DNA from: Catajapyx aquilonaris
Lineage: Eukaryota
Reading direction: 5' to 3'
NCBI GenBank assembly: GCA_000934665.2
Contig: KZ539019.1
Span: 1 to 36,219, forward strand
DNA length: 36,219 nucleotides
Positions 422 through 3,522 of this stretch are shown here, piece by piece. Made by a program: the position numbers and the translations under genes. The notes beneath the pieces were generated by a model. The model saw only the letters and a list, made by a program, of their open reading frames with translations, was not told where the DNA came from and searched no databases. The first letter of the stretch is position 1. Each line of letters begins with the position of its first letter.

Positions 422-509
422 GATATCTGGAAATGCAGCAAGCAGCAAGAACATCCATGGAACTGTGTCTGAACAACTGAAGAAGAACTTTGCCAAATCA
501 CGCTGGCGG
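422..509 (+). CDS. CaMKI: CaMKI internal exon: end of kinase domain, autoinhibitory segment and first half of the calmodulin-binding helix
   Basis: Acceptor tttttgcag|G, donor CGG|gtaggt. Encodes (W)ISGNAASSKNIHGTVSEQLKKNFAKSRWR, matching the CaMKI regulatory segment (vertebrate [21 protein letters not shown]; Drosophila-type NIHGTVSEQLKKNFAKSRWK). Kinase exons lie upstream of the window. Confidence 0.95.
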
Positions 510-1498
510 GTAGGTTTTGAAAGTTTGGCCCTGAGAGGGGCCAGCCGTGGTTGCAGCTCCCCTTCTTGTCTGGATTTGCCTCTCATCTCATTGCATACAT
601 ATTTTCATCTCATCTCCCTCTTTCTCTCTTTATTCATCTCAACTTGATTGATTTCCTTTTCGTGTGAATGAGACCTTCTTGGAATCTTGCCTCCTGGGTT
701 CGGTTGAGAGTGCCGAGGCTTGCCTGATGGAGCTATCTTCTTACCTCTTTGTCTCTTTTTTCATGTTCTCGTATCTGCCTTTTTTTCTCCCCCTCCTGCA
801 CCCTCCAGCCTCTTTCAATGGCATGTCCCTTACCAAGTTTTACTGCACATTCGAAAGGGGTTAAAAATGGGAGTGGGTTCCACATCAAAGGGATCGTGGC
901 CATTTACATTAATGTACTTATACAGTGCGCATTGCAGAGTTGCGATTTCTGTTTGCCTTTAAGCTCAATTACACCAGAGTGGAAGTGGGATTGAATTGGA
1001 AATTTGTGCGGCATAATGCTGTTCATTTTGCAGTCTGTCAAGTTACGTGCCATCCAAACGGCAAGATTCGATTTTTTTGTATGTGGTTTCTGGTTGTAGG
1101 ACGAATGTAGAAACTAGGCCAGTTATGTCAAAAGTTGTGCGGAGTTTCATCATTGGGAAAAAGAATACCAGTATTCATAATTTAATAGGGATAAAACTTC
1201 ATTGTGAATAGTTGACTATTAGGCAGGTACTGCATCATCCACCATGGAACTTGCTGGGATGAATGTGAAATTCATTTATCATTCCTGCTAGTTACTGCAA
1301 TAGATGGGATTAACTAAACTAGAATCAGTACCACACTTAGGTGGAAATAAGATCTGCATGTGCATTATAAAACACATGTGGTGCAAACAAGTAGAGAGTG
1401 GTAAACATTGGTAAGGGAGGGTTTGTTTGGGAGCTAAACCTGCCGTGTGGAGAGAGCTGCGGGTGGATGAGGTTTGGGTGTCCCTGGTCTTGTTGCAG

Positions 1499-1742
1499 CA
1501 ACTGATGCATGCCATTGCCATGGTGCACAAGATGCAGAGGTTAGCACTGGGTAGCACGGGTAGCATGGAGGTGGTGGAGGATGAACGGGAAGAGGATGAA
1601 GCAGCGCAGAAGAGTGGAGAGTCAAATGGGGAGGATGAGGATGACGACATGATGGCAGCAGTATGCAGGCAAAGGGCCAAGGTCCCCAAGTGTCCGCCAA
1701 CTATTCACGAGGAAGAGGGGGAAGCCTCTCCCAACACCGCTG
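1499..1742 (+). CDS. CaMKI: CaMKI alternative exon A: second half of CaM-binding helix plus acidic tail
   Basis: Phase-0 acceptor tcttgttgcag|CAA. Encodes QLMHAIAMVHKMQRLALG, which aligns to CaMKI [18 protein letters not shown], then an E/D-rich tail. The 3' end is uncertain: weak donor CTG|gtttgt at 1742/1743, or read-through to TAA at 1838-1840. Confidence 0.8.
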
Positions 1743-3300
1743 GTTTGTTCTTATTCTGCGGGAGAAAAGAAAACGAGATGCAACACATCTCTCCCGTCTT
1801 CCAGGACATCTCTGTTTTATTATGCCAATTGAGTCTGTAAAAAGGGTGACGTGATGAAACCACCCATGCTTGTAGTGAAACAGGTTGTGCCATTGGTTAA
1901 TATTTGGTTGGCAAAATGTCACATTGGCCTGGAAATTGGCACATAAGCATGACTGTTCATGTTAGGTGATGTTAAGGCATATTGTGATGGTAAATTCTGT
2001 CATGGTAGCTTTAAAGAAATTGAATGGCACAGTTTTGTCAATAACGATGGTTGTCGAAAAAGACAGTCTTTTAAAAAGTGTAAGCCTGGAAAGGTTATGT
2101 CCTTGCGGAGACGGGGTGATGACACACTGGTATCCTGGCTGGCTGACTATTATTGGTTGGATGGATGGAGAGTTGGCTGACAAAATCATGGCTCCCACTT
2201 AGGCTTTTTTTGTCTCTTGTATGTACTCGTTTGCATGTCTGGCTTTTAACCCCCATTTTCCCTTCATCCTTTTCAATGCGTAGCCTTGCTTGACTTACTG
2301 AATGCCTCATTTTCAAGCCTCGTGCACTGTTTTTTACACTTCACATGCATATTTTACCAAGGGTTGAACAACTGTGTTGGGAGCTTCTGGCCTGGGAGCC
2401 TTACATAAACAGTCTCATGCATATTTTAAAGCTTGAAATTAACTTGCAAGGCTCTTGCAGAATGTTAGCTCCCGACACACAACACATATGCAGATGTTGG
2501 TGTTACCTGTCACGAAATATTCTGCTCACAAATAACATGGTTAGTAATCAATTGCTGTGCCATTAGATGCTCATATTAACATGTTAGTTACCGCTTAATG
2601 TACACCAAGCAACGCCCACGTTTGAAAATTAGGAGTGGTGTGGTTATTCTTTGCAGTAAGTTAGAGTGTAACACAAGTAGGTGACACAAGAATTCATGAT
2701 AGTTATGTTAATTTCTTAGTGTGACATAGACAAATGCTTTCTGCTCTTCTGTTGAGTAGCAAGTTTGTGAGGAGTACTGATTGAAAACAATCTGTATGTC
2801 TGATGGTGTGCATACTTTGTAGCAATGTCCGACTCCTTCTAAGCTAGTCAGTTTTAAAACCCTTCACACAAGTGAAGTACACTTGTGTAAACTTAGCGTT
2901 GTTTTCAGTTGGGTACTCCTACCACTAGTTTAAGTGTCCAAAGTTGCTTACATGTTGTATCAGATACCTAGACGCCAGTGAGCAGGCTTGGTGTTTCCAA
3001 ACATGTATGACTCACAGTGTAGATGTGAGCTAAAGTTTCTTTTCCTTTTTGTGATTTGGTCATGTATCATCTGCCGGTGGATCCAGGTTTAATACTGGAA
3101 ATAATTTCACGATATTTGCATTTTGTCAAGGGCATATTTACACAATCATTTTGACCAGGACCCAAAAGTAAAATGAATGTGGATGTATACCTGGACCCAC
3201 TAGTGAAATAATATTTACAGTGCTTTAGCAAGTGAGGTCAACACACAATCTAATTTTGGTCCTGTACCTTTCTCTCTTGCTGCCACCCTTTGGACAACAG

Positions 3301-3522
3301 TACGCCTACCATGCAACGGCCGCAATCCGTCAGATGAAGCTGCTGGCCCTGCAGGGAAGCAGCAGCAGCTGCAGCCCACAGCGATCCAGGGATAACAGTT
3401 CGGAGCGGCGGGAGGACGGGGACGCCCATCCAGGTGGCGGTAAGGCTGAGGAGAAGATGAACGGGGGTCTCTCCTCGACGGCCTTCTCTTCACCCCCTGC
3501 GGTCACACAAGAAAAGGCCTGA
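3301..3522 (+). CDS. CaMKI: CaMKI alternative terminal exon B: second half of CaM-binding helix plus C-terminal tail
   Basis: Long pyrimidine tract and phase-0 acceptor caacag|TAC. Encodes YAYHATAAIRQMKLLAL (cf. Drosophila-type QAYYAATVIRQMQRMAL), then ...PPAVTQEKA and TGA at 3520-3522. Confidence 0.9.
   Translation, partial: YAYHATAAIRQMKLLALQGSSSSCSPQRSRDNSSERREDGDAHPGGGKAEEKMNGGLSSTAFSSPPAVTQEKA

Follow-up and report, generated by a model that had tools for sequence, protein, structure and literature searches.

A cassette exon and a last exon read in two frames: putative alternative completions of the calmodulin-binding helix of an arthropod CaMKI

Splice site C of the plasma-membrane Ca2+-ATPases (PMCA) is, by likeness of working and not by homology, the closest known system to the locus described here. 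The length of the exon used at this site, 154 nt in PMCA1, is not divisible by three and shifts the reading frame downstream; splicing replaces the second half of the calmodulin-binding domain together with the C-terminus, and the a and b isoforms differ in calmodulin affinity and autoinhibition (PMC8835232). Our locus lies in a stretch of 36,219 nt from Catajapyx aquilonaris contig KZ539019.1 (the window, with coordinates given on the forward strand), which opens within the 3'-terminal part of an arthropod CaMKI gene. The kinase catalytic domain is expected upstream of window base 1, and only the regulatory segment onward falls in the window.

In the decoding of calcium signals CaMKI has a central place, and models based on vertebrates and Drosophila give it a single regulatory helix. 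We consider it probable that, in this gene and its arthropod relatives, the helix has two conserved alternative completions, brought about by a cassette exon (exon A) combined with a frame shift of the shared last exon (exon B). The autoinhibitory segment of CaMKI comprises residues 286–307 and the calmodulin-binding segment residues 303–316, the two segments overlapping, in the vertebrate proteins (rat 1A06, human 4FG8 and 4FG9, and CaMK1D 2JC6), at the point where the splice site described here would fall; in a 1–314 truncate, calmodulin was bound and activity was poor (PMC3447817).

The transcript-like data come from one public run, X1, which is available as contigs, is of unrecorded kind and contains 31% of the sampled words. 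Aligned to window positions 1–6000, it gave five contig pieces. The features of the CaMKI locus, as read from the sequence and from these contigs, are the following:

422..509, + strand: common CaMKI exon, 88 nt, ending in phase 0, with splice sites read in the sequence
510..1498, + strand: intron between the common exon and exon A (gtaggt...ttgcag), the join 509>1499 being inferred from orthologous annotated isoforms
1499..1742, + strand: cassette exon A, 244 nt (1 mod 3), starting in phase 0 after ...cttgttgcag
1743..3300, + strand: intron separating exon A from exon B (GT..AG), spliced out in an RNA-like X1 contig
3301..3522, + strand: last exon B in frame 0 (exon A skipped), acceptor ...ggacaacag, stop TGA at 3520–3522
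3301..3395, + strand: last exon in the +1 frame (exon A included), with the short tail ...RLPCNGRNPSDEAAG... and stop TAA at 3393–3395
3523..4343, + strand: 3' untranslated region, at least this far, from the unbroken 1102-letter X1 contig

The common exon starts at 422, where an AG (420–421) stands behind a pyrimidine-rich run (...ttttgcag/G), and its donor follows 509 (CGG/gtaggt). Translation of 423–509 gives ISGNAASSKNIHGTVSEQLKKNFAKSRWR, which closes, as the original prediction stated, in ...FAKSRWR in phase 0. When compared with the sequences of solved structures, this peptide aligns end to end with residues 276–304 of human CaMKI (E=4e-7), and all seven matches at E<=0.01 are chains of CaMKI, CaMK1D or CaMK1G. 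The exon boundary thus corresponds to the position after residue 304, one residue past Trp303, so that the common exon encodes the end of the autoinhibitory segment and, with Trp and Arg, the first two residues of the calmodulin-binding segment. The claim that an intron splits the calmodulin-binding helix is therefore borne out, the boundary lying inside segment 303–316. Since the splice point follows the equivalent of residue 304, 12 of the 14 calmodulin-binding residues (305–316) and the last three autoinhibitory ones (305–307) depend on which exon is used. The calmodulin anchor residues of CaMKI are Trp303 and Met316. An X1 contig of 614 letters covers 421–509 with no differing letter and terminates exactly at 509; 525 of its letters precede 421 and are absent from the window. 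The 30 of them that were inspected encode, together with bases 421–422, ...HPW, the motif that precedes ISGN in relatives, and hence this contig carries a spliced upstream exon.

In orthologous annotated isoforms, the FAKSRW[KR] motif is directly continued by a QLMHAI... helix. The corresponding alternative helix half is encoded in the window by bases 1499–1552 of exon A, QLMHAIAMVHKMQRLALG; beyond the helix, exon A is acidic, with a net charge of -13 over 64 residues, and contains CPPTIHEEE, a motif resembling C-x-x-I-x-E-E. Although the frame from 1499 stays open up to a stop at 1838–1840, this open frame is not the tail used, because the donor after 1742 (CTG/gtttgt) is used instead: an X1 contig of 1102 letters joins 1684–1741/2 to 3300/1, skipping 1558 bases with GT..AG ends. 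The shorter side of the join has 58 letters, the depth is 8.75, and the contig continues unbroken from 3300 to 4343 with no differing letter. By this join, exon A is a 244-nt cassette and not a terminal exon and, as 244 is 1 mod 3, its inclusion places the last exon in the +1 frame. Read in frame 0 from 3301, the last exon gives the canonical helix half, YAYHATAAIRQMKLLALQ, and then a Ser/Gly-rich tail. Counted from the common exon on, the form with exon A has 141 residues and the skipping form 102.

Two phase-0 exons, at 1499 and 3301, had been predicted each to supply a homologous second half of the helix, and their coordinates, phases and homology hold. The same prediction treated them as separate terminal exons with their own tails, a part that has to be given up in view of the contig that splices 1742 to 3301; what remains of the proposed completion by alternative exons is thus the two conserved completions and not the two-terminal-exon architecture. 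The predicted contrast between an acidic and a Ser/Gly-rich tail stands for the B form, and the A tail has to be redrawn as an acidic stretch followed by frame-shifted exon B, not as a read-through to 1840.

A direct BLASTP comparison of A with B returned 11/36 identities (E=0.003, as a single comparison). A profile made of 35 distinct post-Trp helices from CaMKI proteins of arthropods was searched against the 1601 six-frame stop-to-stop segments of the window, among which it picked the A and B segments alone (E=6.2e-12 and 4e-4, the latter being exon B; next best E=0.4). Since exactly two segments were found, the window holds two copies of the helix half and no third. The exon A helix matches isoform P0034 of Penaeus vannamei (21/25, E=2e-10), and exon B matches the B-type part of a barnacle CaMKI model, P0027 (21/35, E=2e-9). 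Both versions align without gaps to the vertebrate CaMKI segment past Trp303, the A helix to human CaMK1D. The assignment of exon B as a helix completion rests on the B-type proteins of arthropods and on the helix profile.

A word-based search for longer proteins with exon A gave four matches among 558 candidates, one of them a Timema douglasi protein (P0004) in which A-like and B-like helices follow each other; three A-type open reading frames also came from this search and are not part of the counts below. With the tail of this protein (residues 181–319) as query, 482 of 614 candidates matched; we sorted the best 120 of these 482 by what comes after FAKSRW[KR], and the counts that follow refer to these 120 proteins. 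The A helix only was found in 58 (54 named, 4 unnamed), the B helix only in 57 (47 named, 10 unnamed), and both helices in tandem in 5. The 54 named A-type proteins are RefSeq or UniRef isoforms from cockroach, termites, katydid, mayfly, stick insect and springtails, from hemipterans (leafhopper, planthopper, whitefly, aphids, adelgid, phylloxera and mealybug) and from crustaceans (decapods, amphipod, krill, barnacle and Daphnia). The A helix, QLMHAIAMVHKMQRLAL, is nearly invariant in annotated CaMKI isoforms of non-holometabolan insects, springtails and many crustaceans. In the similarity scores of the window tail, insect and crustacean tails come close to each other. One half of the refutation test set beforehand for the original prediction was a lack of conservation of exon A in relatives, and this half fails, since the A helix is present in 58 of the best 120 proteins. 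An exhaustive search of representative sequences with exon A yielded four matches at E<=0.001, all of them short partial models that are uninformative on further taxa.

Among the 47 named B-type proteins, 40 are holometabolan (flies, mosquitoes, beetles, wasps and bees), and none of the 40 has the A helix. The other seven are non-holometabolan and include second isoforms of the termites and the whitefly that have A isoforms. Exon A may thus have been lost in Holometabola, Drosophila included, which we regard as a lead and not as a result, because it is based on the best 120 of 482 matches. The five tandem models (P0004, P0018, P0027, P0094 and P0117) come from Timema, Chionoecetes, Amphibalanus, Notodromas and Tigriopus, and the copepod and ostracod entries of the 120 are among them; given the two-frame arrangement seen elsewhere, these five public gene models are probably mis-annotations. 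Both helix isoforms are already present in the automatic annotations of many insects and crustaceans, and our literature searches found no paper on alternative CaMKI exons in arthropods.

If the last exon is shared, the end of an A isoform should be encodable by the +1 frame of the codons that specify the start of the B exon of the same species, and the annotated isoforms were examined for this. In Cryptotermes, Zootermopsis and Bemisia, the last 20, 20 and 26 residues of the A isoform, respectively, together with the stop, are compatible, codon by codon, with a +1 reading of the B exon of that species, and none of 2000 shuffled tails fitted in each of the three species. Cross pairs between termite and whitefly fail to fit, and the two termites fit each other. 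In the window, the +1 tail (3303–3392) matches the C-terminus of the A isoform P0034 of Penaeus vannamei (10/14, E=2e-6). The two-frame arrangement is, judged by these codon comparisons, conserved. Tail positions that are set by frame-0 wobble bases vary freely among species (I/L/V, P/S and C/R), so the +1 tail appears to be under little selection and to be mainly a consequence of the arrangement.

The two helix types differ in a consistent way. With the Trp numbered as position 1, 25 distinct A helices are invariant at positions 3, 5, 7 and 11–16 (9/17), and 25 distinct B helices at positions 4, 5, 7, 10, 14, 18 and 19. Residues W1, Q3, A7, M14, Q15, R16 and L19 are common to both types, for which reason both helices should bind calmodulin. 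Consistent differences, given as A versus B, were observed at positions 4 (L vs A), 5 (M vs Y), 8 (I vs A/T), 10 (M vs V), 12 (H vs R) and 13 (K vs Q). The A helix of the window is identical to the commonest A sequence; its B helix is off the consensus, with Tyr for Gln at position 3 and Lys-Leu for Gln-Arg at positions 15–16, and is nearest to the barnacle and crab forms. Both are hydrophobic at position 5 and have Met, the equivalent of Met316, at position 14. The A type has, at positions 5, 8 and 14, the bulky hydrophobic residues Met, Ile and Met, and the B type an aromatic Tyr, a small or polar Thr/Ala and Met, as in vertebrate sequences. The 1-5-8-14 pattern defines a class of calmodulin targets and, by analogy with it, calmodulin may be bound with higher affinity by the A form, or the A form may pack against the kinase in another way; the two isoforms may thus differ in their activation by calmodulin or in the strength of autoinhibition.

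Downstream of the helix, 38 aligned A-type proteins show S-M-x-V-D and C-x-x-I-x-E-E patterns within the acidic stretch, whose counterparts in the window are SMEVV and CPPTIHEEE. Two positions beyond the helix are kept in at least 90% of these proteins (I366 and E368 of P0010), with the consensus ...C..I.EEAE....

From these observations we propose that an old tandem duplication would have produced two paralogous copies of the post-Trp half of the regulatory helix, which has both autoinhibitory and Ca2+/calmodulin-binding roles and is cut by a phase-0 intron one residue past the anchoring Trp. Skipping of exon A would join this Trp to copy B, giving a form similar to vertebrate CaMKI with a Ser/Gly-rich tail, and inclusion of exon A would join it to copy A, followed by the acidic stretch. 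With the last exon now in the +1 frame, translation would not yield copy B as a helix and the protein would end about 30 residues further on, at 3393–3395. No single protein would thus contain both helix halves, the frame shift being what keeps them apart. By the exon-junction rule, a stop in the last exon is not expected to trigger nonsense-mediated decay, and the A transcript, whose stop lies there, should escape it.

Several points weigh against this proposal. That the X1 contigs are RNA is known by inference, the kind of run being unrecorded; they are taken as RNA because they show two canonical splice joins and because the contigs of the run add up to 32 million letters. Neither 509>1499 nor 509>3301 has X1 cover, nor has most of either intron, which is uninformative either way, and the contig that shows the splice begins at 1684, leaving 1499–1683, the first 185 bases of exon A, uncovered. 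Exon B, when searched alone against the sequences of solved structures, retrieved no CaMKI (best E=0.63, to unrelated chains), and a word-based search for longer proteins with it gave no match at E<=0.01 among 63 candidates. The frame-shift arrangement also seems not to be universal: A isoforms of Daphnia and single-open-reading-frame predictions (P0006 and P0007; P0060 among the A-type) share their last residues, and since these predictions include intron-like upstream sequence and end on the same residues as the isoforms, the stop in Daphnia seems to lie within exon A. Structure predictions for the termite proteins were of low confidence (mean pLDDT 45.9 for the A-type P0010 and 55.2 for the B-type P0124, with the regulatory region below 50 in both) and were left unused.

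The Daphnia sequences bear directly on the possibility that exon A is an alternative terminal exon, running to the stop at 1838–1840 and polyadenylated in the following intron, so that A and B would be independent 3' ends. This picture may hold in the Daphnia lineage, where P0006 and P0007 end like the named A-type isoforms, and in the window the frame from 1499 is indeed open to 1840. It nevertheless fails to account for the contig of the window's own species that splices 1742 to 3301, for the residues read past 1742, which have no counterpart in the A-type proteins among the best 120 of 482, and for the match of the +1 reading of exon B to the tail of the shrimp A isoform; since insect A-type tails, too, agree with a +1 reading of the B exon of their species, we regard independent terminal exons as improbable for this gene. 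Less probable still is that both helices are placed in one protein through an in-frame donor within exon A, such as the GT at 1661, which would leave an exon of 162 nt. A site of this kind is present (CAGCA/gtatgc at 1660/1661), and five of the 120 proteins carry A and B in one frame. Those five, however, are not RefSeq isoforms, being named protein kinase domain-containing, unnamed, hypothetical or by family, and the linker between A and B in P0004 has no counterpart in cockroach or termite isoforms, as a translated intron would have none. The X1 contig, moreover, holds 1684–1742 contiguously, so that splicing of that transcript did not use the donor at 1661, and we give this reading very little weight. 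About as little, or marginally less, goes to the idea that exon A is included through noise in splicing or unproductively, with no protein made from it: the donor after 1742 (CTG/gtttgt) is weaker than that after 509 (CGG/gtaggt), but an A helix invariant at 9 of 17 positions in 25 distinct sequences, from insects to copepod-grade crustaceans, is hard to reconcile with noise, and decay of the A transcript is, by the general rule for stops in a last exon, not expected.

The strongest competitor, which we still consider unlikely, accepts the cassette and the frame shift and assigns them another purpose, the helix swap being nearly neutral for calmodulin sensing and the payload being the acidic stretch of exon A with its S-M-[DE]-V and C-x-x-I-x-E-E motifs, which would serve in localisation, partner docking or intramolecular contacts. 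It would explain why I366 and E368 are kept beyond the helix in at least 90% of the 38 A-type proteins and why the post-helix part of exon A in the window is so strongly charged (-13 over 64 residues), and it agrees with the retention of W1, Q3, A7, M14, Q15, R16 and L19 in both helices. A duplicated helix would, however, be unneeded if the tail alone mattered, and across insects and crustaceans this helix is near-invariant and distinct from B, with consistent differences at positions 4, 5, 8, 10, 12 and 13. We therefore keep to two alternative helix completions selected by the cassette exon. A fuller version of this proposal is put forward more tentatively, as possible rather than probable. 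In it, the duplication would predate the split between insects and crustaceans, the half-helices would be interchangeable, the exclusivity by frame shift and the dual-coding last exon would be conserved, the isoforms would differ in Ca2+/calmodulin threshold or in basal autoinhibition, Holometabola would have lost the switch, and C-x-x-I-x-E-E would be a new acidic docking motif.

The likeness to PMCA site C can now be specified. The CaMKI cassette also enters inside a calmodulin-binding domain (after the equivalent of residue 304, in segment 303–316) and is spliced to the last exon; its length, 244 nt, is 1 mod 3 and leads to a new stop at 3393–3395, three other species being alike in this. 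Whereas PMCA is a pump, the host here is a protein kinase; the half-helix is present in the inserted exon as a paralogous copy, so that both forms keep a full calmodulin-type helix, and the form that includes the exon is the longer and not the shorter one (141 versus 102 residues from the common exon). PMCA isoforms differ in calmodulin affinity and autoinhibition, and the CaMKI isoforms are compared here through their sequences, at positions 4, 5, 8, 10, 12 and 13.

Substitutions derived from tandem exon duplication are the subject of a further study (PMC8373072). As in mutually exclusive exons, homologous neighbouring exon parts provide, in CaMKI, alternative versions of one structural element; the CaMKI pair is, however, unequal in length and is not spliced as one or the other, exclusivity arising through the frame shift at translation. 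Since the A messenger RNA contains both exons, this is not a classical mutually exclusive pair.

An exchange of residues 305–316 is not known to us from any CaMKI isoform of vertebrates, and our literature searches found none. The nearest counterparts are the annotated isoforms of Penaeus vannamei (X1/X2), Cryptotermes secundus (X1/X2), Zootermopsis nevadensis (X2/X3) and Bemisia tabaci (X2/X4), which have the same A and B helices and whose A forms also share the acidic stretch, the C-x-x-I-x-E-E motif and the +1-frame tail. They are database predictions without a described function, and the window species differs from them in that its acidic insertion is longer and its B helix unusual.

Some further observations concern the surroundings of these exons. 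An X1 contig of 255 letters (depth 3.8) lies entirely within the intron between exons A and B, at 2904–3158, and may stem from unspliced precursor, from a repeat or from a transcript of its own. Another, of 3656 letters, spans 4348–6000 and beyond, starting four bases past the end (4343) of the contig that covers the CaMKI 3' end; with a depth of 34.1 against 8.75, about fourfold, it could come from an unevenly covered, longer 3' untranslated region or from a distinct transcript of higher abundance. A repeat search in 400–3600 found short pairs only (14–18 nt), possibly due to chance, and no sign of competing RNA pairings. Two of the pairs, which may be chance, are an 18-nt inverted repeat (1197–1214/1698–1715, 89% complementary), pairing exon A with intron sequence, and a 15-nt one (1728–1742/2369–2383, 87% complementary), involving the exon A donor and the intron.

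Elsewhere in the window, two hairpins of the mir-263 precursor family were identified on the + strand, at 34796–34874 and 35396–35475, 600 bases apart, with scores of 56.6 and 51.8 bits against a gathering score of 51.3; they look like a small microRNA cluster. On the - strand, an open frame of 255 residues (10494–11261), with long Glu/Asp runs, short tandem repeats of 12–18 nt inside it and no Pfam family, sits in a GC-rich stretch (10001–11000, 62% GC) and is probably an exon of a neighbouring gene. A Pfam family at E<=0.01 was found for none of the 40 further open frames of the window with a length of about 100 residues or more. A tandem array at 20274–20535 consists of 7.3 copies of a 36-nt unit (90% matches), with higher-order periods of 74 and 110.

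If the proposed arrangement is correct, one CaMKI gene would give rise, by a conserved splice switch, to two sensors with different settings. Such a switch would never have been seen in Drosophila if, as may be the case, it was lost in Holometabola. The locus would also provide a clean case of a terminal exon that is read in two frames and kept so across insects and crustaceans, and it would flag the five public models in which both helices are fused as probable mis-annotations.

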